A stretch of DNA of 64,000 bases, taken from assembly GCA_016192995.1 (NCBI GenBank), contig JACPTB010000002.1, positions 98,283 to 162,282 of the forward strand, given 5' to 3'. Positions 11,865 through 62,275 of this stretch are shown one piece after another. The notes under the pieces were generated by a model. It had not been told where the DNA came from. It saw only the letters and a program-made list of their open reading frames with translations, and did not search any database. Within the stretch, counting starts at the first letter, position 1, and each line of letters opens with the position of its first letter. The position numbers were made by a program, and so were the translations under genes. The DNA is from Candidatus Woesearchaeota archaeon (lineage in GTDB: Archaea > Nanobdellota > Nanobdellia > Woesearchaeales > DSVV01).

Positions 11865-12021
11865 GTATGTAATAAGTCTTGTATGGTTTTAGCGCCAGTT
11901 CAGCTTTTGAAGTGTGTTTCAATTGGATTTTTCTCTCTGGAACTCCGAAAAATCCCCAAAATGTATTTAAGAAGAGCTTCACAAAAGTAGGCGCTAAAAC
12001 CCCAGACGACTTATTACATAC
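11865..12021 (-). mobile_element. MITE-like element, family 2, copy B (157 bp) with TIR and 7-bp TSD
   Basis: TIR GTATGTAATAAGTC / GACTTATTACATAC; flanked by CACAAAA on both sides (11857-11863 and 12022-12028); core hairpin 11925-11955. Confidence 0.75.
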
Positions 12022-33587: not shown

Positions 33588-33843
33588 TACGTAATAAGTC
33601 TGGGGTTTTAGCACCTACTTTTGTGAAGCTGTTCTTATATTTGCTGTGAGGATTTTTCGGGGTTCCTTGCCGATAGGCAAGTCTTATAATCCCAGACGCA
33701 AGCCAAATTATGACTCCTTGATTTATAAGAAAAATCCAATTGAAACACACTTCAAAAGCTGAACTGGCGCTACCTGAATCCGAAGGATCTCAGGGATTAA
33801 AAATAGTAATTTTTAATAAAACCATAAAAGACTTATTACGTAC
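33587..33843 (+). mobile_element. MITE-like element, family 2, copy C (257 bp) with TIR and 8-bp TSD
   Basis: TIR GTACGTAATAAGTCT / AGACTTATTACGTAC; direct repeat GTCGAGTA at 33579-33586 and 33844-33851; core hairpin 33650-33737 carrying a nested insert. Confidence 0.85.
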
Positions 33844-43482: not shown

Positions 43483-46400
43483 ATGAATGAACAAAAAATC
43501 CTGCGAATTAAAAAAAGAACTGGTGAATATGTTGGATTTGATCTGAAGAAAATTTCTAATGCTATTTTCAAAGCTGCCCAGGCAGTGGGAGGTTCTGATT
43601 ATAAAATCTCAGAACGATTAGCAGAACAAGTTTTTGACATGCTCAATGAACAGGACTTGAAAGAAGACATACCTTCAGTGGAAGATGTTCAGGATTGCGT
43701 TGAAAAAGTGCTTATTGAAACAGGACATGCAAAAACAGCAAAAGCTTTTATCTTATATAGACAAAAACGTGCAGAAGCACGATTAAAAGCTGATGCATTA
43801 GTTGGTATAAAAGGTTTGGAAGAAAAGCAAGATCCTTTTGGCGTGAATGAAGAATTATTCGGCAGTTCATTAACCAGCCATAATATCAAAGTTACGGTAA
43901 CTGAACCAATTGCAAAAATGTTTACGTATAACAGCAAATTATCCAAGTTAGTGGATAAAAATAAAATTAATGCCTATAGAAAATTATTTTATATGCTCAA
44001 GGATATGCAGAAGGAGGGTTCGTTGCCATTGCATCCTGCAAATGATTATTTAGCAGGCAATGAACTTGCCATGGATATTTACAGGAAAAAATATTATGTC
44101 CACGATCTTGATGATAACCTTATTGAGCAGCGTCCGGAAGATGTATTTGTAAGGCTTGGTTCTTATCTTGCATCTATTGAAGAAGATGAAGACAATCAAG
44201 TGTATTTTGCCCAGGAATTCTATAAAATGCTTTATGAAGGATATTTTGTGCCTGGCGGCAGAGTAATTGCTGGAGCTGGAGATTTATATAGATTAAAAAC
44301 ATTAGCAAATTGCTTTGTTTCAGTGATGGAAGATGATAACATTGAATCTATTTACAAAGCTGCTTTCGAATGTGCGCGAACATATTCATATGGGGGAGGA
44401 ATTGGCGTTGATATTTCTACCCTGCGTCCAAGAGAAGCTGTGGTACATAATGCAGCAAATTTCTCAACAGGCAGCGTTTCATTCATGGAAATCTACTCAT
44501 TAACAACAGGGTTAATTGGTCAAGCTGGAAGGCGAGGCGCATTAATGCTAACTATTGATGTTAAGCATCCTGATATTCTTAATTTTATTAGAGTCAAACA
44601 AGAATCAAATTGGGTGACAAAACAGATTAGGGAGCAATGCAGCTGGTCAGGAAAATTCAACGCTGAACAGCTGGATGCGATTGAAAAACAAGTTCGTGAA
44701 AACACCCAGGTAAGGTTTGCAAATATTAGCATGAAAGTTACTGATGAATTCATGACTGCTGTTGAAGAGCAAAATAAGTATGGAAAGGATAAAATAGTAG
44801 TGTATAAAAAATTTAGCAAATTGATTATTAATAGAGTTAACCAAAGCAAAGAAATGAATTTTGCCTTTGGCATTCCTTCAAAATATTTAGAGAATTATGA
44901 GTTATATAAAGTATTTGAAACCATTGAAGAAGCAAATGAGTTTATACATAAAGAAACAAACAAACAGATCTCCAAGCAATTGCTTGAAAATGTGCAGAAC
45001 AGGGACATTTATGGAGATGTAATTGTACCAGTAGAATCACAAAATTATGATTTAGCAGTGAGATATTCAGGTGATTATTTATTATATTTTAGTTCTGAAC
45101 CTGCAGGAGAAACAAGAAGATTAGTAAAAGCGCGGGATATTTGGGATGAATTTGTTAAAGGTAATTATCAAACAGCTGAGCCAGGATTAATATTCTGGTC
45201 AAGAATGACAAAGTATTCACCTTCTAATTATATAGGGAGACCAATTGCAAGTACAAACCCCTGTATTGCAGGAAACTCACAGGTATCAACAAGTAAAGGA
45301 TTGCAGCAAATAAAAGAGCTTGTTGGTAAAACGCCTCAGATTCTAACTGACAACCGAGTGCCTATACAAGTGAGAGATACTAACGGAAGAATTATGTTGC
45401 TCGAACAAAAACAACAAGGAGTAAGTTTTGACACTATAGAAGCAGCATGGTCATCGGGAATTAAAGAAACCTATAAACTTACCACAAAAAAGGGCTATGA
45501 AATCACTGCAACAGGTGATCATAAGATTATGACTACTGAAGGTTTTAAGCAGTTACATGAACTTACACCTAAAGATAAAATTTTAATCCAAAAAGGAGAA
45601 GGCATGGGAAACAATGATAAGCTATTATCTATTGAAAGAGATGAAATTATCAAAGGAGATAATAATCATATCTATCATTACAAATTCCCCACAACATGGT
45701 CAAAAGAACTTGGGCAATTGCTTGGTTGGACAGTAGGAGATGGATTTATCACTCCTGAACCAGATAATAGACTTGGGTTAGTATTTAGTAAAGAAGATGA
45801 AGACGTGATGAGCCAGTTAAAGAAGTTTATTGAGGAGATATATGGAAAAGAAACAAAACCAAGCATCAGAGAGTCTACAACACAATTAAGATACCATAGT
45901 AAATATTTTTGTGATTTTCTACGTAGATTAGGCATCAAAAGTGTAAAAGCTGAACTTAAGCAAGTTCCGCATAGGATATTTACTGCGCCAAAAGAAGCAG
46001 TAGTAGGATTTTTACAGGGATTGTTTACTGCTGATGGAACTATGGCAGTTGGCGAAAAAGGGAATTATATTCGATTAACTTCTAAGTCAGAAAAGCTTCT
46101 GAAAGAAATACAAATAATACTTATTAACTTAGGGATGTTATCTACAATCTATGAACGCCATCGAACTCCTCAGAAAAAATTTAATTACTATAATGCAGCT
46201 GGAGAATATAAAGAGTACATAACAGATGGGAAATTATGGGAGTTAAGTATAACTAAAGGAAGCTTGCAGCGATTTGTTGAAGAAATTGGGTTTATAGGAA
46301 GTAAACACCAAGAAAGAATAAAAGTATTTCTCACAAAGAAACAATACCAAGAACACTTTTACGATACTATAAAAAGCATAGAACCACAGGGAAAACAAGA

Positions 46401-47730
46401 AGTATTTGATCTAACAGAACCACGAACACATTCTTTTATAGCTAATGGCATTGTTATTTCAAATTGTGGTGAAGTGCCATTAGAAGACGGCGGCGCTTGT
46501 AATCTTGGATCAATTAATCTTTCTCGGTTAGTAATTGATGGTTTTACTGATACTGCAAGAATTAACTGGAACGAACTTGAACGAGTAACAAAGTTGGCTA
46601 CACGATTTTTAGATAATGTTGTTGGCTGGAATATTTCATTGAATGCTCTTGATAAACAACGGAGTGCTGCTGCAGAAACACGAAGACTTGGTTTGGGTGT
46701 TATGGGAATTGCAGATATGTTATTTCAGCTTGGTTTAGAATATGATAGTGAAGAGGGTATAGCAGTTATTGAGAAAGTTTGTCAGGTTATTGCTAATGCA
46801 GGTTATCGTGAATCCGCAGAATTAGCTGAAGAAAAGGGAGCTTCACCAGTATTTGATTATAACAAATACAGCCGCAACCCATTTTTTAAAGAAGCTCTTG
46901 ATGACAATACTAAAGAATTAGTCAAGAAAAAAGGATTGCGGAATATTGCAATACTTTCTATTGCGCCAACAGGAACTATTTCAAATATTGTATTAGGGTA
47001 TAAAGGAGAGCAAAAGAATTATATTGGTGTTAGCGGCGGTGTTGAACCGGTATTTGCAATATTTTACACGAGAAGAAGTGAAAATTTCGGCAACAAACGA
47101 TTTAACATCTTCCATTCAACAGTAAGCGCTTATTTGGATAAAAAAGGGCTCCAGGAAAAAGCGCAGTATGCAACAAGTGAAGACGAACTCCGCCAACTGT
47201 TGCCTGGATGCTTTTTTAGAACTGCCCATTATATTGAGCCTGAAAAAAGAGTTTTAATTCAGGGAGACTGCCAAAAATATACTGACCATAGTATTTCATC
47301 AACCGTCAATTTACCTGAAAGCATAAGCCCTGAAACCATTTCAGAGATTTACATTAAAGCATGGAAATTTGGCTTAAAAGGGATCACTATTTACCGTGAT
47401 GGAAGCAGGTACCCTATTTTAAGCATTCAGCAACAGCAAAGCGCATTTCAAGATTTCAAGAAAAAACAATTCAAATATGTCTCTGATGGAAAAGAAATCA
47501 TAGTAAGAGGCGACCAAGTTATAAAGCTGCCTCAGGGAAAGCTTTCAACGCCGTATCATGCGCAGAGAGAAAACATTCAAGGGATAGTGTTAACCGAGAT
47601 CACTGATCAACCAGCGATAACTGAAGAAGACAGTTCTAATAAAAATGAAGATCATAAAGATGATAACAAAGCTAAAGTCTGCACTATTAGTTTTGAAGAT
47701 GGAAAGCTTGTTAAATCATGCTCAGAGTAA
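43483..47730 (+). CDS. nrdJ: class II (adenosylcobalamin-dependent) ribonucleotide reductase with ATP-cone and intein
   Basis: N-terminal ATP-cone ILRIKKRTGEYVGFDLKKISNAIFKA; catalytic TNP-C...GEVPLEDGGACNLGSINL; C-terminal GLKGITIYRDGSR and terminal Cys pair. Confidence 0.85.
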   Translation: MNEQKILRIKKRTGEYVGFDLKKISNAIFKAAQAVGGSDYKISERLAEQVFDMLNEQDLKEDIPSVEDVQDCVEKVLIETGHAKTAKAFILYRQKRAEARLKADALVGIKGLEEKQDPFGVNEELFGSSLTSHNIKVTVTEPIAKMFTYNSKLSKLVDKNKINAYRKLFYMLKDMQKEGSLPLHPANDYLAGNELAMDIYRKKYYVHDLDDNLIEQRPEDVFVRLGSYLASIEEDEDNQVYFAQEFYKMLYEGYFVPGGRVIAGAGDLYRLKTLANCFVSVMEDDNIESIYKAAFECARTYSYGGGIGVDISTLRPREAVVHNAANFSTGSVSFMEIYSLTTGLIGQAGRRGALMLTIDVKHPDILNFIRVKQESNWVTKQIREQCSWSGKFNAEQLDAIEKQVRENTQVRFANISMKVTDEFMTAVEEQNKYGKDKIVVYKKFSKLIINRVNQSKEMNFAFGIPSKYLENYELYKVFETIEEANEFIHKETNKQISKQLLENVQNRDIYGDVIVPVESQNYDLAVRYSGDYLLYFSSEPAGETRRLVKARDIWDEFVKGNYQTAEPGLIFWSRMTKYSPSNYIGRPIASTNPCIAGNSQVSTSKGLQQIKELVGKTPQILTDNRVPIQVRDTNGRIMLLEQKQQGVSFDTIEAAWSSGIKETYKLTTKKGYEITATGDHKIMTTEGFKQLHELTPKDKILIQKGEGMGNNDKLLSIERDEIIKGDNNHIYHYKFPTTWSKELGQLLGWTVGDGFITPEPDNRLGLVFSKEDEDVMSQLKKFIEEIYGKETKPSIRESTTQLRYHSKYFCDFLRRLGIKSVKAELKQVPHRIFTAPKEAVVGFLQGLFTADGTMAVGEKGNYIRLTSKSEKLLKEIQIILINLGMLSTIYERHRTPQKKFNYYNAAGEYKEYITDGKLWELSITKGSLQRFVEEIGFIGSKHQERIKVFLTKKQYQEHFYDTIKSIEPQGKQEVFDLTEPRTHSFIANGIVISNCGEVPLEDGGACNLGSINLSRLVIDGFTDTARINWNELERVTKLATRFLDNVVGWNISLNALDKQRSAAAETRRLGLGVMGIADMLFQLGLEYDSEEGIAVIEKVCQVIANAGYRESAELAEEKGASPVFDYNKYSRNPFFKEALDDNTKELVKKKGLRNIAILSIAPTGTISNIVLGYKGEQKNYIGVSGGVEPVFAIFYTRRSENFGNKRFNIFHSTVSAYLDKKGLQEKAQYATSEDELRQLLPGCFFRTAHYIEPEKRVLIQGDCQKYTDHSISSTVNLPESISPETISEIYIKAWKFGLKGITIYRDGSRYPILSIQQQQSAFQDFKKKQFKYVSDGKEIIVRGDQVIKLPQGKLSTPYHAQRENIQGIVLTEITDQPAITEEDSSNKNEDHKDDNKAKVCTISFEDGKLVKSCSE
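45262..46464 (+). other. intein (401 aa) with LAGLIDADG homing-endonuclease domain, inserted before catalytic Cys of nrdJ
   Basis: N-terminal splice CIAGNS, block B TGDHKIMT, LAGLIDADG motifs LLGWTVGDGF and VVGFLQGLFTADG, C-terminal HSFIANGIVISN followed by extein Cys. Confidence 0.8.
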
Positions 47731-50330: not shown

Positions 50331-52361
50331 ATGCCCCTTGAAAAAGTCATTAAACGGAATGGTGAAACTGTAGTTTTTGATCCAAAAAAGATCACAGATG
50401 CATTGTACAAAGCAGCGCAAGCTATTGGAGGAACTGATGAAGAGCTCTCTAAAGCATTAACAAAAAAGATTGTAGCAAAGATAGAAGAATTATTTCCTGA
50501 CAAAATCCCCCATGTTGAAGATGTTCAGGATGTTGTTGAGCGTGTTTTAATAGAAGACAATCATGTAAAAACAGCAAAAGCATATATTTTGTATAGGGAA
50601 CGCCAAAAAAATATCCGGGAGGTAAAACAGTCATTAGTAGGAGGATATGTTGATAAGCGCTTTACTATTAATGCATTAAAAATTCTCAAAGAACGATTAT
50701 TAATGAAAAAAGAAGATGGCGCTGTTGAAACGCCTGAAGATATGTTTAGAAGAGTAGCAAAAGAAATAGCAAAAGCAGATAAACAATATGATAATGAGCC
50801 AAACCTGAAAGAAACTGAAGATAAGTTTTTCGAGTGTTTAAACAAGCTTGATTTTTTGCCAAACTCGCCCTGCTTAATGAACGCAGGAACCAAAAATCAG
50901 CAGTTAATTTCATGCTATGTCCTACCAATTGAAGACAGCACTGAAAGTATTTATACAACATTAAAAAATGCTGCAATGGTGCATCGTACAGGTTCAGGAA
51001 CAGGCTTTTCTTTTTCCAATTTAAGACCAAAAGAAGATACGATCGATGATTCTCGTGGATTTTCAGCAGGGCCAATTCCATTTATGCATGTCTATGATAA
51101 ATCAACAGAAATAATCAAGAAAACTGGTTTAAGGCGTGGCGCAAACATGGCAGTGTTGCGTGTTGATCACCCCAATATCCTCGATTTTATTACCGCAAAA
51201 GAAAATCCCCATCACTTGAGAAACTTCAACATCTCTGTTGGCATTACAAAAGAATTTATGGATGCATTAGACAACAGAAAACGATATCCATTAATTAATC
51301 CGCGAACAAAGCAGGAAGTTCGTTTATTGCCTGCTAAAGAGGTCTTTGATTTAATTGCAACAATGTCGTGGAAAAATGGTGAGCCAGGAGTTATTTTCCT
51401 TGATACTATTAATGAGAAGAACCCTGTTCCTGAACTTGGTGAAATAAAAACAACCTCTGCCTGCGGAGAAGTGCCTTTGCTTGAATATGAAGCATGCCCG
51501 CTTGGCTCAATAAACTTATCTAATATGGTGCAAGGAGGCAGGGTCAATTTAGCTGCATTGCGGGACACTGCGTGGATTGCAGTGCATTTTCTTGATAATG
51601 TTATTGATGTAAATAAATACACCTTAAAAGACAGTGAAAAAATAACTAATGATAATAGAAAAATAGGAGTTGGAGTTATGGGTTTTGCAGATATGCTGTA
51701 TCAGTTAGGGGTTCCTTATAATAGTGAAGAAGCAATAAAAGTAGCAGAAAGAATCATGAAATTTATTCGTGATGAAGCAAGATTAGCTTCAGAAGCTCTA
51801 GCAAAAAAAAGAGGAGTATTTGCAAATTATGAAAAAAGCATATATGCAAAAAAAGGAATAAAGCAAAGAAATGCGACAACAACTGCTATTGCGCCAACAG
51901 GAACAATCTCATTAATTGCTGATTGTTCTTCAGGCATTGAACCGAATTTCGCTTTAAGTTACATGAAAAAAATCACCGGTGGGGATGAGTTATTATATGT
52001 TAATAAGCATTTAAAAAGCGAATTATTGAAAAGAGAGATTTATTCTGAAGATTTAATGAAAGAAATTGCATCAAAAGGATCACTCCAATCATTTTTGGAT
52101 TTAGCATCAGAAATCAGAAAAGTGTTTGTTATTAGCCATGAAATACCTGCAGAATATCATGTATTAATCCAAGCAGCATTTCAAAAATATTGCGATAATG
52201 CAGTTTCAAAGAGCGTTAATTTAGAGTACACTTCAAGCAAAGAAGATGTCGTTAAAACCTTCAAGCTTGCTTACAAACTAGGGTGTAAAGGAATAACCAT
52301 TTATCGAGATAGAAGCAGAGAAGATCAGATTTTAACACTATTAGGGGGAGAAGCAATATGA
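50331..52361 (+). CDS. nrdJ: class II ribonucleotide reductase (short paralog, no intein)
   Basis: ATP-cone VIKRNGETVVFDPKKITDALYKA; TSACGEVPLLEYEACPLGSINL; GCKGITIYRDRSR. Confidence 0.8.
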   Translation: MPLEKVIKRNGETVVFDPKKITDALYKAAQAIGGTDEELSKALTKKIVAKIEELFPDKIPHVEDVQDVVERVLIEDNHVKTAKAYILYRERQKNIREVKQSLVGGYVDKRFTINALKILKERLLMKKEDGAVETPEDMFRRVAKEIAKADKQYDNEPNLKETEDKFFECLNKLDFLPNSPCLMNAGTKNQQLISCYVLPIEDSTESIYTTLKNAAMVHRTGSGTGFSFSNLRPKEDTIDDSRGFSAGPIPFMHVYDKSTEIIKKTGLRRGANMAVLRVDHPNILDFITAKENPHHLRNFNISVGITKEFMDALDNRKRYPLINPRTKQEVRLLPAKEVFDLIATMSWKNGEPGVIFLDTINEKNPVPELGEIKTTSACGEVPLLEYEACPLGSINLSNMVQGGRVNLAALRDTAWIAVHFLDNVIDVNKYTLKDSEKITNDNRKIGVGVMGFADMLYQLGVPYNSEEAIKVAERIMKFIRDEARLASEALAKKRGVFANYEKSIYAKKGIKQRNATTTAIAPTGTISLIADCSSGIEPNFALSYMKKITGGDELLYVNKHLKSELLKREIYSEDLMKEIASKGSLQSFLDLASEIRKVFVISHEIPAEYHVLIQAAFQKYCDNAVSKSVNLEYTSSKEDVVKTFKLAYKLGCKGITIYRDRSREDQILTLLGGEAI

Positions 52362-55801: not shown

Positions 55802-56077
55802 TTAAAACAAACTGAAGCTTAAATAGTTAATGATAGTACCAGTAGGAAGAATAACATCTTGAGCAGCACTTTCTGTTTTCAAGACATAGCCACTCAAGAT
55901 GATATCTTCAGGGGTAGGATTATATAAGACAACAGCTTCCCCACCACTCTCTGTTGCAACAGGATCATAATATACTTCACTTATAACAACTGAATTAGCT
56001 AAAACACCAGAACCTAAACCAAAAAATAACACTAAATTAGTTAAAAATACTCTCAAATATTTTTCCATAATAATCAC
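55802..56077 (-). CDS. small secreted lamin-tail-domain (LTD)-like protein
   Basis: signal peptide then VVISEVYYDPVATESGGEAVVLYNPTPEDIILSGYVL matches LTD consensus V.I.Ev...p.g...gEwvElyN.t...vdLsGw.L. Confidence 0.5.
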   Translation of the reverse strand: MIIMEKYLRVFLTNLVLFFGLGSGVLANSVVISEVYYDPVATESGGEAVVLYNPTPEDIILSGYVLKTESAAQDVILPTGTIINYLSFSLF

Positions 56078-56718: not shown

Positions 56719-57600
56719 GTGGAACAAAAAAGACGTCTGCAAGAACTGGGTGGATCATTATATTTATCACTGCCTGCTTCATGGCTGCAAAAGTTTAACG
56801 TGAAAAAAGGAAGTCATATCTATATTACGCTTGAAGATTCCGGAGCTTTAACCATATTTCCTGAAAAGGTTGCAAAAGATGAAACAACAAAAGAAAAAAC
56901 AAGCACTATTCTTTATAATAAATATATTTTTAGGAATATAATGGGAGCATATTTGATAGGGAATGATTATATTGTTATAAAAAAAGAGCTTCCCTTTACC
57001 AGAAAAGAACGAAACGAGATTCTTGCTATTGTTCATAACCTTTTAAATGTGGAAGTTATTGAGGAGCAGCCACGCAAGATTGTTATTCAAAATCTCAAAT
57101 CTGAGCTTGATATTAAAAAACTCGTTACAAGAATGTATCAACTAACAAAAACAATGTTAGAAGATATAATACCAAACCAAGATGATAAAGAAATTCTTCA
57201 AAGTGTGATTGACCGCGACAAATTAGTAGGAAAATGCTATCTTGCGATTATCATGCAGATTCGAGCATCATTAACAAGAAGCTGGAGCAAAGATATTAGT
57301 TTTGTTGAAATATTTGATATTCGCCTGCTCATTGAGAGAATGGAAAAGATTGGCGACGAAATTAAACATCTTGCAAAAGAAATGCTTGAGAAAAACAAAC
57401 CAAAACATGATGATCTTGACGATCTAAAAGAATTATTAGCGTTATACGAACAAGCATACGGAGCTTATCTTAAAAAAGACATTTCAACTGCAGAAAAATT
57501 CTGGGATAATGAAGAAAAATACAAGAAACAATTTAACCACAATGCACACCTACAAACAATGTATGAGTTAATCAAAGATATCACTGATTTGGTAGTTTAG
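56719..57600 (+). CDS. AbrB/SpoVT-like N-domain fused to PhoU-like helical domain regulator
   Basis: LQELGGSLYLSLPASWLQKFNVKKGSHIYITLEDSGALTI swapped-hairpin pattern; C-terminal helical repeats of PhoU length. Confidence 0.45.
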   Translation: MEQKRRLQELGGSLYLSLPASWLQKFNVKKGSHIYITLEDSGALTIFPEKVAKDETTKEKTSTILYNKYIFRNIMGAYLIGNDYIVIKKELPFTRKERNEILAIVHNLLNVEVIEEQPRKIVIQNLKSELDIKKLVTRMYQLTKTMLEDIIPNQDDKEILQSVIDRDKLVGKCYLAIIMQIRASLTRSWSKDISFVEIFDIRLLIERMEKIGDEIKHLAKEMLEKNKPKHDDLDDLKELLALYEQAYGAYLKKDISTAEKFWDNEEKYKKQFNHNAHLQTMYELIKDITDLVV

Positions 57601-57608
57601 ATAATAGA

Positions 57609-57766
57609 CTCAGGTGAAAATGTAGTTTTTGGCATCTTTTGGTGAAGCTCTTCTTAATTTTACCTTGAGGATTTTTCGGAGTGCCAGAGAGAAAAATCCA
57701 ATCGAAATACTCTTCAAGAGCTGAACTGATGCCAAAACCGAGGCTATGCCGAGATTTTCACCTGAG
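57609..57766 (+). mobile_element. MITE-like element, family 2 variant, copy F (158 bp)
   Basis: 13-bp TIR CTCAGGTGAAAAT / ATTTTCACCTGAG; core hairpin 57669-57699 GGATTTTTCGGAGTGCCAGAGAGAAAAATCC. Confidence 0.75.
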
Positions 57767-57813
57767 CCTAAACAATAAAAACTTTTATTAACCAGTAAAC
57801 GAGGTAATATTAT

Positions 57814-58275
57814 ATGAACAACTTACGCCCTCCAAACATGCCTCCTCTTGGTAGTATGGATCCTGGGATGATGGATATCAAAGCAAGCAAGCAACGAGAA
57901 CTCCAGAGAGATTTGCCAGCCCAACCTCCTTTAGAATTAACGCGTGATATTTCAAGGAGAATGAGAGTTCTTGAAGAACAATATACTAATGTAAGAAAGA
58001 GTATGCAGCTTTCTGAACAGAATGTAATTCAAGTAGGAAAAGACGTGAAAAGTGAATTAGCTATGCTGAATTCAGAAATTTCTGAATTAAAAGCAGAACT
58101 CAATGAACTTAAAGATGAGCTTAAGTTGATAGTAACAGAATTAAAAGAAACTGCTAAGAAAGATGATGTTCAAGTGCTTGAAAAATACATTAATCTCTGG
58201 GAACCAGTTAAATTCTGCACACAAAAAGATGTTGAACAAATTCTAAGAAGAGTATTGCAACAGAATCAGAAATAG
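57814..58275 (+). CDS. coiled-coil protein
   Basis: 153 aa; P/M-rich N-terminus then heptad-rich segment. Confidence 0.4.
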   Translation: MNNLRPPNMPPLGSMDPGMMDIKASKQRELQRDLPAQPPLELTRDISRRMRVLEEQYTNVRKSMQLSEQNVIQVGKDVKSELAMLNSEISELKAELNELKDELKLIVTELKETAKKDDVQVLEKYINLWEPVKFCTQKDVEQILRRVLQQNQK

Positions 58276-58312
58276 GATGTGATTATTCAAAGTATTTTAT
58301 ATTGATTAAAGG

Positions 58313-58353
58313 AAGAAGAGCTTCACAAAATAGGCGCTAAAAACTACATTTTC
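58313..58353 (-). repeat. solo fragment of family-2 MITE arm (copy G)
   Basis: reverse complement GAAAATGTAGTTTTTAGCGCCTATTTTGTGAAGCTCTTCTTCC matches left arm of copy F. Confidence 0.6.
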
Positions 58354-58361
58354 TAAAGAAC

Positions 58362-59078
58362 CTAAGGTCGTTGTTGTTGCTTCATATCCGCAGTAATTCT
58401 GCTCAATTCATTAACATTTTCTGTCATAATAGGCAATACTTTCTGAAATACTTTTTCAAGCGCTTGGATATCAGACCCAATAGTAGTTAAATTTCTATCA
58501 TAATCTCCTATTCTACCAAGAACACCTTTATGAAGGGTATCAAATTGTTTTTGAAGATCAACAAATTGCTGTTCAATTTTCAAAATCCTTCCTTCAGTCC
58601 TATCTTTCCAGTCAATAATTTTATTGATGCTTTTAACAATTTCATTCCATTTCTCATCAATTATTGCTTCTGCTATCTCTTCAATGCGCTCTAAGCCTGG
58701 AATCTGGGGAGAACCTGACTGACTGCCTATGTTCCCCATGCTTTGAGCATCATTATAATCCTGATTCTGCCCATAATCTTGAGCAATTGATTGAATGTTA
58801 TTTCCTGGAAATTGCTTATTTTCTTCAGGAAGCATTTCATTTGCCATCATACCTGGATTTGGTCCCATACCAACACCTGTCTTAATTTCAGCTTGATTCA
58901 TCGCGTCAAAAATATCAGTCATATCAACACCTTCACGCTGTAAGGTGTCAATGATTTGACTATTCCCTAATCCTTTTCGTTTTAAATCCAATACTCTATC
59001 AGTAGGAGGTCCCTTTACACGAGGAGGTCCTAATTGAGGATTTGCTTCCTCTTTTTTACCAAAACTAAAGAGAGGCAT
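58362..59078 (-). CDS. hypothetical protein with low-complexity middle and C-terminal coiled coil
   Basis: 238 aa; last gene of a four-gene minus-strand cluster. Confidence 0.4.
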   Translation of the reverse strand: MPLFSFGKKEEANPQLGPPRVKGPPTDRVLDLKRKGLGNSQIIDTLQREGVDMTDIFDAMNQAEIKTGVGMGPNPGMMANEMLPEENKQFPGNNIQSIAQDYGQNQDYNDAQSMGNIGSQSGSPQIPGLERIEEIAEAIIDEKWNEIVKSINKIIDWKDRTEGRILKIEQQFVDLQKQFDTLHKGVLGRIGDYDRNLTTIGSDIQALEKVFQKVLPIMTENVNELSRITADMKQQQRP

Positions 59079-59095
59079 GATACATCACAAGCAAG

Positions 59096-59698
59096 TTAAT
59101 GGCCACCGCGATCAGGCCAGTCAGGAGTCATTTTACCTGACATTAAGCGCACGGTGAGCGCTGCAACGATTAACACAAATAAAAGCCCGAGGACTTTTGG
59201 ATGATAAATGGTTCTTTGAAGATTAGTCTGATAATTTCCAGTTGCTGTGCTTCCTCCAGGATCTTGCTTGGTAAGAACAAGTTGTTCTCCAGCTTGACCA
59301 AGTTCAAGCTGCTTTTGACCAAAGGAAGTAGATAATGCGCCAAGGATGATAATAACTATAACAATAATAAATGTCCATTGAAGCCCTGCATGATTTTTCA
59401 TCATGGATGAAATGCTGTCATCTGAAACGCCAAACAGTTTTACGCCAATGAGAGCAAAGATTACAAGGATGAACAAAATAGTAAACCAGGGAGCTGCAAA
59501 CATGACTATGGAAGTTATATTTGGAGAGAGAACAACAACAAAGGAAACAACAATAGCTAAAATCGCATGTATGATTTTATTTGCGCCAAGAGCTTTGGTG
59601 TATTGCAATGCTGCGTAGATAAGTACTAAAACTAAAATAAAAGAAAGAACGGGTGTAAAGTGCTGCAATAATTCAATATTAATAACTGGAACAGCCAT
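59096..59698 (-). CDS. polytopic membrane protein, paralog 3 of tandem trio
   Basis: 200 aa, 4-5 TM; C-terminal DRGGH tail shared with paralog 2. Confidence 0.5.
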   Translation of the reverse strand: MAVPVINIELLQHFTPVLSFILVLVLIYAALQYTKALGANKIIHAILAIVVSFVVVLSPNITSIVMFAAPWFTILFILVIFALIGVKLFGVSDDSISSMMKNHAGLQWTFIIVIVIIILGALSTSFGQKQLELGQAGEQLVLTKQDPGGSTATGNYQTNLQRTIYHPKVLGLLFVLIVAALTVRLMSGKMTPDWPDRGGH

Positions 59699-60301
59699 TT
59701 AATGGTCACCTCGACCACCGCCCAAGAGTTTATTGAACGATTCAAGACCTTTACCCACTTTAGACAATGCTTCTCCCTGCCCTGGTTCACGAAGTATAAA
59801 CCATAACACTATAGCAAATACTAAGATAACAATAACTAATGAAGTTGTATCAGGACCCCACCAATTGGTATAAAATGATGGCCACCAGTCTGCTGCTGAA
59901 CCGAAAAAGTAGACTACAGCAGCAAATGAAATAAATGCAATAATTCCGCCAAGATTATGAACAAAATTTGGCGCTACTATGCCGGTTAATAATAATACCA
60001 TCATAATAGCAATTGCTACGACAGAGATATTTGGCAGCGCTGAATTCATAATAACGACAAGATCTGCGCCCTCAGGATATTTTCCCAAGACATGAGGCAT
60101 CACAACCATAAGAGATAAAATTAAAGCAAACATAGCATTGAAATTCTTGTGATGCTGACCAAGAATATTAGTTTTTTGGAGAATCGCAAATACGATTAAA
60201 AACACAAGAAAAAAAGGTAAAATTACCTCAGTTAAATTATAAGATTCTAAAAATGTTAAAAAACTACCTGCACCATATGTTGAACTATAAGGGTATGCCA
60301 T
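59699..60301 (-). CDS. polytopic membrane protein, paralog 2
   Basis: 200 aa; VILPFFLVFLIVFAILQKTNILG and KNFNAMFALILSLMV conserved with paralog 1; abuts paralog 3. Confidence 0.5.
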   Translation of the reverse strand: MAYPYSSTYGAGSFLTFLESYNLTEVILPFFLVFLIVFAILQKTNILGQHHKNFNAMFALILSLMVVMPHVLGKYPEGADLVVIMNSALPNISVVAIAIMMVLLLTGIVAPNFVHNLGGIIAFISFAAVVYFFGSAADWWPSFYTNWWGPDTTSLVIVILVFAIVLWFILREPGQGEALSKVGKGLESFNKLLGGGRGDH

Positions 60302-60372
60302 ACTGTCAGCCTCCTTTTTATGAATTTTTATTATATTATCATTATAAGCTTAGCTTATAATAGTTACTCTTT

Positions 60373-61014
60373 TTAATGCTTTTTATCATCATCCCCATGT
60401 TTTTTCTCTTTAGGACTTTTAACTATATACCCAAAACCCAGTAAGATAAGGATAAAAAAGAGTATTGCTCCAACAGCTGTTGAGTCTAGGTTATAATAAA
60501 CATAATTAATAAGCCACCCTAAAAATGATTCTCCTGAGTCCATAGGAATAGCATTAAGGAAAATAAGGAGTATGCCTATAAGAAGGACAACCATAAACGT
60601 TGTCCGCCATGCACCTTTAAGAACAACATCTTCGCCTTCGCCATGAAATGCCCCAATTAAAAGCAAAAACATAACTATGATAAGTAATAATAAGACAATA
60701 TTTGCTAATGACTCGTTGATAATAGCTACTAATCTTGCTGAAGCTATAACAAGGAATGCTATAACAAAAGCAGCCATAGCATTAAGATTCTTTTTAGGAT
60801 GCATTTTTCCTGCTACTTCTTCAGTGCCTAAGACCTTTGTTTTTTCAAAAATAGCAAAAACAATAGTGAAAACAAGGAGAAAAGGCAATACTATATCATA
60901 GACACCCAGTCTATCTAAAAACCCAATAACATCGCCAAAGACTGTCTGCTTTGAAGCTTCATAATAAACCATACTCTTTCCCTGCTTACCGAGATATTTA
61001 AAGCTTTCGTTCAT
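60373..61014 (-). CDS. polytopic membrane protein, paralog 1
   Basis: 213 aa; IVLPFLLVFTIVFAIFEKTKVLG, KNLNAMAAFVIAFLV. Confidence 0.5.
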   Translation of the reverse strand: MNESFKYLGKQGKSMVYYEASKQTVFGDVIGFLDRLGVYDIVLPFLLVFTIVFAIFEKTKVLGTEEVAGKMHPKKNLNAMAAFVIAFLVIASARLVAIINESLANIVLLLLIIVMFLLLIGAFHGEGEDVVLKGAWRTTFMVVLLIGILLIFLNAIPMDSGESFLGWLINYVYYNLDSTAVGAILFFILILLGFGYIVKSPKEKKHGDDDKKH

Positions 61015-61047: not shown

Positions 61048-61359
61048 ATGGTTAATAACAACAATATGGTTAATAAAAAAATTGCAACTATCAAAAAGCA
61101 AGTAATTCCTATTTTGAAAAAAAATGATGTAGTTAAGGCAGGTATTTTTGGTTCTGTAGCTAGGGGAGAGGATAAAAAGAAGAGTGATGTTGATATTTTA
61201 ATTAAATTTAAAGGTGAAAACAAAAGCCTTATTGATTTAGTGCGGTTAAAGTATGAACTTGAAGAAAAATTGAAGCGAAAAGTAGATATTTTAACATACA
61301 GATCAATCAACCATCTGATTAAGGATCAAATTTTAAAAGAAGAAGTGAGGATTTTATGA
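61048..61359 (+). CDS. minimal nucleotidyltransferase (MntA-type antitoxin)
   Basis: GIFGSVARGEDKKKSDVDILIKF. Confidence 0.7.
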   Translation: MVNNNNMVNKKIATIKKQVIPILKKNDVVKAGIFGSVARGEDKKKSDVDILIKFKGENKSLIDLVRLKYELEEKLKRKVDILTYRSINHLIKDQILKEEVRIL

Positions 61360-61697
61360 AGAATAATGCTACTTATTTAAAACATATTCTTGAAGCAGTT
61401 AATCATATAGAAGACTTTACCAATGATATATCCCCAAATGAATTTCTCAATAATGTAGAAAAGCAGTTTGCAGTAATCAAAGGAATTGAAATAATTGGAG
61501 AAGCTATTAAAAATATTCCTTTAGAAATAAGAGAAAAACATCCTCAAGTGCCATGGAAAGAAATCACTGGAACAAGAGATATTATGATTCATGCTTATTT
61601 CACTGTTGATCTCAATTTGGTGTGGAAAATTGTTGAAATACATCTCCCTGTATTAAAACAAGCAATACAAAACATATTAAAAGACCAAGATAAATAA
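61356..61697 (+). CDS. HEPN-domain protein (HepT/DUF86-type toxin)
   Basis: Rx4HxY motif TRDIMIHAY; overlaps MNT gene by 4 nt. Confidence 0.65.
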   Translation: MKNNATYLKHILEAVNHIEDFTNDISPNEFLNNVEKQFAVIKGIEIIGEAIKNIPLEIREKHPQVPWKEITGTRDIMIHAYFTVDLNLVWKIVEIHLPVLKQAIQNILKDQDK

Positions 61698-61705
61698 CTA
61701 AAGCC

Positions 61706-62275
61706 ATGACAACCTTCCTTGACAATAAAAAAACTGAACAATTAAAAAAAGAGATTGATAAGTTTGAGCATGAACGAGAAACTATTATTAGACAATCACG
61801 TGATATTCTCAAAGCTTCAAAACATGCTATTTACAGCATCCAGAGAGATGATATGAAAACAGCTGAGCAGTTGTTAAAGGAAGCTGAAAAACATATTGGT
61901 AGTTTACGAAAAGGTTCTGATTATACTGATGCTATTGGAGCATTTAACGCAGCCTTGGAAGAATATGTTGAAGCGCAATGTTTTATGGCATTTGTCAAAA
62001 GCAAAAATATTCCAACCTATAAAGAATTGAAAGTTGGATTTGAACAATATTTATTAGGATTATGTGATTTTACCGGCGAATTAGGACGAAGAGCTGTGCT
62101 GCAGGCAACAGTTAAAAACAAAAAAGAAGTCCAACGGATACGAGATATTATTGATGAAGTATATGGTTTTTTTAGCCAATTAAATCTGGGCAATTCTGAA
62201 TTAAGAAAGAAGTCTGATTCGATCAAATGGAATTTGAAGAAGGTTGAAGATTTATTGTATGATGTGAATAAATAG
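61706..62275 (+). CDS. translin-family protein
   Basis: YLLGLCDFTGELGRRAV resembles translin DLTGELMR signature; ~190 aa helical. Confidence 0.55.
   Translation: MTTFLDNKKTEQLKKEIDKFEHERETIIRQSRDILKASKHAIYSIQRDDMKTAEQLLKEAEKHIGSLRKGSDYTDAIGAFNAALEEYVEAQCFMAFVKSKNIPTYKELKVGFEQYLLGLCDFTGELGRRAVLQATVKNKKEVQRIRDIIDEVYGFFSQLNLGNSELRKKSDSIKWNLKKVEDLLYDVNK

Follow-up and report, generated by a model that had tools for sequence, protein, structure and literature searches.

A paralogous membrane-protein trio and two coiled-coil proteins in Woesearchaeales: a candidate accessory module of the pilin-less type IV filament-like locus of DPANN archaea

Introduction

DPANN archaea form a large and mostly uncultivated radiation of tiny symbionts, in which host attachment and resource uptake are unsettled. 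To our knowledge, the sole recurrent candidate for a host-contact machinery in DPANN consists of two type IV pilus-like loci, of which one is devoid of filament genes. In the present study we analysed a 64,000-nucleotide stretch of a Candidatus Woesearchaeota genome (contig JACPTB010000002.1), the whole of which is referred to as the window, where positions 57,814 to 61,014 encode three membrane proteins in tandem (M1, M2 and M3, the trio) together with two coiled-coil proteins (CC238 and CC153). In most of the related genomes sampled these genes recur beside an ATPase of the type IV filament (TFF) type, and we favour, with moderate confidence, the reading that the five genes serve as an accessory module for 'locus 2', a TFF-like DPANN locus without pilin genes, the two coiled-coil proteins corresponding to its DPANN-specific coiled-coil proteins (CCPs).

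The closest described system is that of Hamm et al. (2024, Nat Commun 15:6449; PMC11291902), in whose work two type IV pilus-like loci were found to be conserved among cluster-2 DPANN, Woesearchaeota being named among them. These loci encode CpaF, TadC and CCPs, with filament genes in locus 1 only; CCPs were detected in the proteome of Ca. Nanohaloarchaeum antarcticus, and a role in host interaction was suggested by the authors (PMC11291902). In the annotation table of that study the locus-2 CCP NAR1_01690 falls within the unlisted run 01660-01700, which directly precedes the intein-containing T2SSE gene 01710 and an unannotated 628-aa protein, 01750 (PMC11291902). In gene order, this layout parallels the canonical woesearchaeal block described below. 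Locus 2 further agrees with that block in its lineages, in a CpaF/FlaI-type ATPase (with an intein in some cases, e.g. L001, our surveyed loci being numbered with the prefix L), in a TadC-like platform, in one or two DPANN-specific coiled-coil proteins and in having no filament genes in the locus. CC153 and CC238 are likened to the CCPs NAR1_01690 and NAR1_03220 by description and locus layout, not by sequence. One difference is that the neighbourhood in the window lacks the ATPase and platform genes; coiled-coil genes adjoining CpaF/TadC homologues, a feature of locus 2, were seen in related woesearchaeal loci and not in the window.

A first interpretation made from the DNA letters, the sequence-only reading, had proposed the module as a candidate undescribed one. 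This does not hold for the coiled-coil/CpaF/TadC locus, which is already known (PMC11291902); what appears to be new is the membrane trio, an abundant and apparently undescribed family, as no trio of paralogous membrane proteins is described in the main text of PMC11291902 nor in a 2026 preprint that deals with the diversity of archaeal TFFs (10.64898/2026.04.22.720090). A TFF ATPase subclade, 4F, had been noted by Makarova, Koonin and Albers (2016; PMC4858521); it also occurs in nanoarchaea, where the cognate pilins were not identifiable, and in haloarchaea its loci encode an intracellular coiled-coil protein specific to them, arCOG07564. By description, the pilin-less nanoarchaeal ATPase and the coiled-coil partner are common to that clade and to the block studied here, whereas no membrane trio is described for it. 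Castelle et al. (2021; PMC8204110) described a module of 51 families, most of them uncharacterised, that is confined to Woesearchaeota and Pacearchaeota. The trio and coiled-coil families may be candidates for membership of that 51-family module.

Two better-known machines offer analogies. PilM, PilN and PilO, the alignment subcomplex of bacterial type IV pili, are small membrane-associated coiled-coil accessory proteins found beside a pilus ATPase and platform and bridging cytoplasm and membrane; of these, PilM is actin-like, and the two others are bitopic proteins whose periplasmic domains are ferredoxin-like. The module resembles them as an accessory set encoded next to an ATPase and a platform, and differs in having soluble coiled-coil proteins and membrane subunits with five transmembrane (TM) helices. 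For the module proteins no similarity to PilM, PilN or PilO was found in sequence or fold. In the archaellum motor, cytoplasmic coiled-coil proteins (ArlX or the ArlCDE ring) likewise stand beside a FlaI-type ATPase and a polytopic platform (scaffold and stator reviewed in PMC8978795 and in preprint 10.64898/2026.04.22.720090). In contrast, the block has no ArlH, ArlF/G or archaellin genes, ArlX has a TM anchor where the present coiled-coil proteins have none, and the five-TM trio has no archaellum counterpart.

Results

Three paralogous five-helix membrane proteins

The five genes under study are the following, each given as an open reading frame (ORF):

60373..61014, minus strand: M1, ORF of 213 aa, five TM segments, first gene of the trio
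59699..60301, minus strand: M2, ORF of 200 aa, five TM helices, a C-terminal amphipathic helix and a Gly-rich basic tail
59096..59698, minus strand: M3, ORF of 200 aa, five TM segments, third and most divergent gene of the trio
58362..59078, minus strand: CC238, ORF of 238 aa, soluble coiled-coil protein
57814..58275, plus strand: CC153, ORF of 153 aa, soluble coiled-coil protein

The arrangement noticed at first, namely three tandem minus-strand genes for membrane proteins of 200-213 aa with two of them abutting, is borne out, all ORFs being present and the boundary between M2 and M3 being exact (59699 abuts 59698). The true start of M1 is probably Met15 (60972), and such a start gives a protein of 199 aa, matching the closest orthologue, which was called at 199 aa. 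M2 and CC238 are each 100% identical to hypothetical proteins of Candidatus Woesearchaeota archaeon (HYY69_02500 and HYY69_02490, respectively), and Rfam and tRNA scans of the window were empty.

The paralogy proposed in the sequence-only reading was confirmed. M1 matches M2 in BLASTP with E=3e-17 and M3 with E=0.007 directly and 1e-7 against M3 orthologues from other genomes; the direct comparison of M2 with M3 gave no significant match. Orthologues of M3 in L001, L003 and L004 were found with E values from 1e-19 to 1e-31, and orthologues of M1 and M2 reach 25-50 bits against hidden Markov models (HMMs) built from M3. By these comparisons M1, M2 and M3 are paralogous, M3 being the distant member, and the triplication must be old because each paralogue has its own orthologues. 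As for the features thought to unite the three, M1 and M2 do carry the VILPF(F/L)LVF.IVFAI..KT..LG and KN(L/F)NAM motifs, which in M3 are degenerate. The long loop before the last M3 helix carries the motif T.TG(D/N)(Y/F)..N...R.I.HPK. The (D)RGGH/GGGRGDH tails seen in two of the proteins are local to the lineage, and a C-terminal His/Gly tail was rejected as a family signature since only about 10-12% of the family members end in His.

Five hydrophobic segments were located in each of the three proteins, in agreement with their initial description as polytopic. The AlphaFold2 (AF2) model of M2, obtained with 55 homologues (predicted local distance difference test, pLDDT, 73; predicted template modelling score, pTM, 0.45), comprises helices at residues 24-44, 52-72, 81-112, 117-136, 150-170 and 178-193, that is, five TM helices and a C-terminal amphipathic one. 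The counts of Lys and Arg in the loops put the first loop and the Lys-rich C-terminal tail in the cytoplasm; following the positive-inside rule, the predicted topology is thus N-terminus out and C-terminus in.

A profile of the family built from M1, M2 and M3 matched 3,021 clusters (50% identity) at E<=1e-3 among 1.84 billion representatives; at E<=1e-10 there were 1,725 clusters, and the top 150 were all of about 190-210 aa. An explanation of the ORFs as chance frames, or as the remnant of a mobile or viral element, could point to the copies of a miniature inverted-repeat transposable element (MITE)-like repeat and to the toxin-antitoxin genes that flank the block. It is refuted by the hundreds to thousands of conserved homologues in conserved order; furthermore, none of the families has relatives in the 2.9 million viral contigs of IMG/VR and the G+C content of the five-gene region equals that of its surroundings (30-37% throughout the window), so that we regard this explanation as having practically no chance of being right.

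Two variations in the trio were observed. In L031 and L059 there is an additional M2 copy (order M3, M2, M2, M1), which indicates that the trio can be expanded by tandem duplication of its middle gene. P0217, a 365-aa protein on an ENA metagenome contig, is the one in-frame fusion of M1 and M2 that was encountered, and its junction keeps an apparent M2 start (…LTKMTFLND…). It was given no weight as Rosetta-stone evidence, because the junction looks like read-through and a fusion of five plus five TM segments would invert M2; the sequence is probably due to a lost stop codon or read-through and not a functional fusion.

Two soluble coiled-coil proteins

The AF2 model of CC238, of high confidence, shows a three-helix N-terminal domain (residues 26-70), a disordered linker rich in Gly, Pro, Met and Asn (71-124) and a single helix of 108 residues (129-236). 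Both the linker and the C-terminal coiled coil had been recognised beforehand. The heptad periodicity of CC238 and of CC153 exceeds in each case that of 300/300 shuffles, and a scan for hydrophobic segments detected no TM segment in either protein. CC153, which had been described as a divergently oriented coiled-coil gene, is thus a coiled-coil gene by the heptad test, its orientation being in fact convergent, tail-to-tail with CC238. Its alignment displays the conserved motifs RRLRVLEERY and VLEKYINLWEP.NFVT, and it was rejected as a paralogue of CC238 (hhalign probability 12%).

A word-indexed search retrieved 721 CC238 homologues, and relatives were found in 446 GTDB species genomes. The labels of the best 80 CC238 loci are nearly all Woesearchaeota, Nanoarchaeota or Nanobdellota, and the few others look mis-binned. 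CC238 of the window starts with MPLFSFGKKEE (59043-59078, minus strand). An N-terminus of the type M(G/A)(L/V)FG(F/L)GKK(D/E) occurs, by eye, in about half of the CC238 homologues (P0074-P0193, residues 1-12) and not in the others, a strict pattern matching 29/120 homologues. This motif resembles the N-termini of ESCRT-III, PspA and Vipp1, which are short, amphipathic and membrane-binding; the remainder of the protein is dissimilar.

A seven-gene block conserved in related genomes

Linkage was surveyed in 160 related loci, consisting of 80 CC238-anchored loci from species genomes (the best 80 of the 446 GTDB species genomes, with 10-kb flanks and ORFs classified by HMMs) and 80 M2-anchored metagenome loci; the denominators count eligible loci, corrected for contig ends. 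The dominant order is a platform-like protein with eight TM segments (<-), a T2SSE ATPase of about 760 aa (<-), CC153 (->), CC238 (->), M3 (<-), M2 (<-), M1 (<-) and a translin gene (->). Co-occurrence across related genomes had been put forward as a check on the module, and in these loci the linkage turned out to be strongly conserved. Around CC238, CC153 is present in 69/73 eligible loci (95%), the trio in 66/77, the T2SSE ATPase in 52/68, the platform-like protein in 43/60 and translin in 31/68, with housekeeping neighbours (aminoacyl-tRNA synthetases, TGT, SSB, a metallo-beta-lactamase (MBL) hydrolase, HD, M29) at 18-40%. Around M2, M1 is found in 75/75 loci and M3 in 71/71, which makes the trio an invariant unit of fixed order, followed by CC238 (46/54), CC153 (37/47), the ATPase (24/31) and translin (32/57). 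Since the frequencies fall sharply at the edges, the block comprises seven genes: platform, ATPase, CC153, CC238, M3, M2 and M1. The translin gene probably stands outside the module.

The genes are closely packed, with median gaps of 6 bp between M3 and M2 and 50 bp between M2 and M1, and with the stop codons of CC238 and M3 lying a median of 46 bp apart. In most genomes CC153 is placed directly upstream of CC238 on the same strand, and in L076 the genes for the T2SSE ATPase, CC153 and CC238 all run in one direction, with a stop codon overlapping a start. In L061 (9450-16747) and L063 (5653-13725) the coiled-coil pair adjoins a second and different TFF locus, which has an ATPase of 502-510 aa and two separate bona fide T2SSF proteins (268 and ~445 aa); the proteins encoded further downstream in it start with hydrophobic stretches like those of pilins. 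L025, L075 and the window have the trio in the same orientation as CC238. In a minority of loci, e.g. L001 (8164-9678) and L004 (8257-9612), a gene for a DUF87 (HerA/VirB4-like) ATPase lies between CC238 and CC153.

The neighbouring ATPase and platform-like protein

The nearest solved relatives of the long ATPase are A. fulgidus GspE (2OAP, E=2.6e-28), CpaF and FlaI, and its best NCBIfam match is FlaI at 3e-36, under the cut-off of that model. Judged by these matches, it is a type IV filament-type secretion ATPase. In L001 this ATPase contains an intein and is 1299 aa long. The protein encoded directly downstream of the ATPase has about 735 aa, eight hydrophobic segments and large helical cytoplasmic regions; its matches to T2SSF are sub-threshold (7/27 members, best E=0.0014) and it has no PDB sequence match, the label 'platform-like' reflecting its position and architecture. 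Derivation of the trio from the platform protein was rejected (hhalign probability 0.2%). Apart from the gene families named here, none recurs in the block, and on inspection no N-terminus of the M proteins has a [KR]-[GA] cleavage motif with a hydrophobic helix after it. The secretion, pilus or division machinery imagined at the outset finds backing in one respect, the T2SSE ATPase and platform-like neighbours pointing to a pilus-type system, and secretion and division are left without it.

Searches for a known family

The sequence-only reading recognised no known family, and this was sustained. None of the five proteins has an above-threshold match in Pfam or NCBIfam; searches of the PDB with sequence profiles made from alignments of M2, CC238 and the platform protein gave no match, and the accompanying Foldseek fold search returned only E values of at least 2.9. 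Foldseek with the CC238 model returned E values of at least 1.1, the N-terminal domain weakly resembling three-helix units of the LuxR/GerE type. The particular affinities that had been suggested fared less well. No Yip1 match with E<=1 was obtained for M1-M3, nor is Yip1 among the 25 most frequent sub-threshold families for 55 M2 orthologues. The 72 CC238 and 22 CC153 homologues compared with Pfam hit generic coiled-coil families only, Snf7 and PspA_IM30 not being among the 25 most frequent, and the alpha1-alpha2 hairpin core of ESCRT-III is not found in the CC238 model (three-helix mini-domain, linker and single 108-residue helix). As for an archaellum accessory protein, FlaC_arch matches are sub-threshold (E of at least 0.036 in 13/72 CC238 homologues and E=0.64 for CC153), and no archaellum genes were found in any surveyed locus.

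Among the sub-threshold Pfam matches (E<=1) of the 55 M2 orthologues, DUF4131 occurs in 16, DUF2070 in 15 (best E=1.2e-5) and DUF6057 in 14. The DUF2070 (PF09843) matches align residues ~20-175 of the M2 orthologues with positions ~41-181 of a profile of 561, with listed scores of 12.6-17.4 bits, and no score reaches the gathering threshold of 30 bits. DUF2070 is a predicted archaeal membrane protein of about 560 aa, as against about 200 aa for the M family, and its literature holds no functional information. On this sequence evidence the similarity is an open lead and not membership. Recurrent matches to its N-terminal TM region in the same register, together with sub-threshold matches to DUF4131 and Competence (ComEC regions), would suit a trio that works as a heteromeric transporter or channel and takes up, for example, host DNA, nucleotides or lipids, with the coiled-coil proteins as regulators and the ATPase competence-like or uninvolved. 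Three polytopic subunits without soluble domains fit such a role too, as does the MBL-fold gene that recurs nearby in 18/57 loci. However, all these matches lie below the Pfam gathering scores and are typical of hydrophobic composition, the shared DUF2070 register is not independent evidence because the queries are mutually homologous, and the MBL gene is linked at background frequency only. We consider a channel or transporter of this kind improbable.

The rearranged locus in this genome

Three further features bear on the organisation of the locus in the window:

57600..57785, no strand assigned: MITE-like repeat, full copy of 186 nt, with 17-nt terminal inverted repeats at 57605-57621 and 57754-57770
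58313..58353, no strand assigned: MITE-like repeat, partial inverted copy between the stop codons of CC153 and CC238
61706..62275, plus strand: translin-family gene (Pfam Translin, E=3.7e-27)

The presence of MITE copies at the boundary, noted from the start, is thereby substantiated, and further copies occur at 11885-11986 and 33606-33766. CC238 alone is inverted with respect to the usual order, and CC153 and CC238 are here convergent. The full MITE-like copy sits where most relatives carry the ATPase gene, and CC153 is bracketed by two mutually inverted stretches of the element, the inverted repeats I1 and I2 (57616-57660 and 58308-58353; ~45 nt, 84-87% complementary). The inverted repeats flanking CC153 and the inversion of CC238 relative to some 80 other genomes suggest a repeat-mediated rearrangement. 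Short Logan contigs of the locus end just past CC153, as would fit assembly breaks at repeats.

On the other side, M1 and translin, which most other genomes have side by side, are separated by an inserted nucleotidyltransferase/HEPN (HepT-like) toxin-antitoxin pair (61048-61359 and 61356-61697, both on the plus strand). The insertion is common to the window and to its closest relative, L091 (M2 87% identical), which has the same layout with a VapB antitoxin replacing the MITE fragment.

Additional observations were made in the surroundings. A 91-aa ORF at 55802-56077 (minus strand) is an N-terminal fragment of a lamin-tail-domain (LTD) protein (Pfam LTD, E=1e-8); at the same position L091 has a 473-aa LTD protein and a 400-aa gene, and the window copy thus looks truncated or deleted. 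Two genes for the ribonucleotide reductase large subunit (43483-47730 and 50331-52361, both plus strand) lie 2.6 kb apart, the first encoding 1415 aa with an intein that has a LAGLIDADG endonuclease. Around them are found a corrinoid adenosyltransferase, an AAA ATPase and a dCTP deaminase.

Discussion

Under the reading that we favour, M1, M2 and M3, ancient paralogues encoded at near-zero spacing, would assemble into one hetero-oligomeric complex of five-TM subunits, with their N-termini outside and their Lys-rich C-terminal tails in the cytoplasm. CC153 and CC238 would serve as a soluble scaffold or adaptor on the cytoplasmic side of the membrane, which may couple the trio to the ~760-aa ATPase of the PilB/FlaI/CpaF type and to its eight-TM platform-like partner, by analogy with ArlX/ArlCDE at the archaellum motor and with PilMNO in bacterial pili. 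In the present genome the rearrangement, with the CC238 inversion, the MITE copies and the toxin-antitoxin insertion, may have moved the ATPase and platform genes beyond the 64-kb window. The likely role of the assembly would be in building or running a cell-surface or host-contact structure, as proposed for 'locus 2' of cluster-2 DPANN.

Several observations weigh against this proposal. The functional evidence for it consists wholly of gene neighbourhood, and no pilin-like family recurs in the block among the related loci. By tblastn, the 64-kb window has no homologue of the T2SSE ATPase or of the platform-like protein, and the 13-kb locus of L091 has neither; the module can thus be encoded apart from the ATPase. 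About 14% of the CC238 loci have no trio within 4-10 kb. In L006 (9496-13242), L007 and L008, whose CC238 proteins are among those most similar to that of the window, CC153 and CC238 occur without the trio or the ATPase within 10 kb, and CC238 is followed co-directionally by genes for phosphatidylserine decarboxylase (PSD), CDP-alcohol phosphatidyltransferase, DUF212 and CDP-archaeol synthase (CarS). As translin is syntenic in about half of the loci, part of the linkage reflects gene order inherited within one order-level lineage. The M2 model, finally, is of moderate quality only by both of its scores.

The same observations lend themselves to another explanation, in which the genes constitute an autonomous module of membrane and cytoskeletal parts, used for instance to shape membranes, to divide or to organise the envelope or lipids, with the trio anchoring two coiled-coil filaments or adaptors, and the proximity of the TFF ATPase reflects inherited Woesearchaeales gene order and not functional coupling. 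Besides the window and L091 with no ATPase nearby and the synteny of translin (46-56%), the position of the coiled-coil pair before phospholipid genes in L006-L008, with a gap of 1 bp between CC238 and PSD in L006, agrees with it, as does the MGLFGFGKK-like start in about half of the CC238 homologues, which presumably resembles membrane-binding N-termini. Against it stand the step in linkage from 72-95% within the block to 18-46% for everything else, the overlapping T2SSE-CC153-CC238 operon of L076 and the coiled-coil pair beside a second, unrelated TFF locus in L061 and L063. Furthermore, no signal of Snf7, PspA, an FtsZ partner or CdvA was detected among the 72 CC238 homologues, and CC238 is modelled with one long helix and not with the ESCRT-III hairpin core. 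We therefore judge an autonomous module unlikely, while giving it more credit than the channel or transporter considered above, and retain the accessory module of the TFF-like locus as the preferred reading.

A bolder version of the latter would regard the trio, the coiled-coil pair and the pilin-less ATPase and platform as a machine derived from TFF that has lost pilus building and has become a DPANN-specific membrane device at the site of host contact. The conduit, possibly a heteromeric pore or bridge, would be formed by the trio, and the coiled-coil proteins would couple it to the motor. We find this version doubtful, only slightly less so than a simple channel or transporter; if true, the device would import lipids, nucleic acids or metabolites that the reduced DPANN cells cannot make.

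For the protein databases, the trio supplies a missing family of more than 3,000 clusters, for which neither Pfam nor NCBIfam has a model. For the biology of these archaea, the pilin-less locus of Woesearchaeales gains an invariant, abundant and unannotated trio of paralogous membrane proteins, which is a plausible membrane-embedded partner for that locus and a new candidate part of the cell-surface or host-contact machinery of DPANN.

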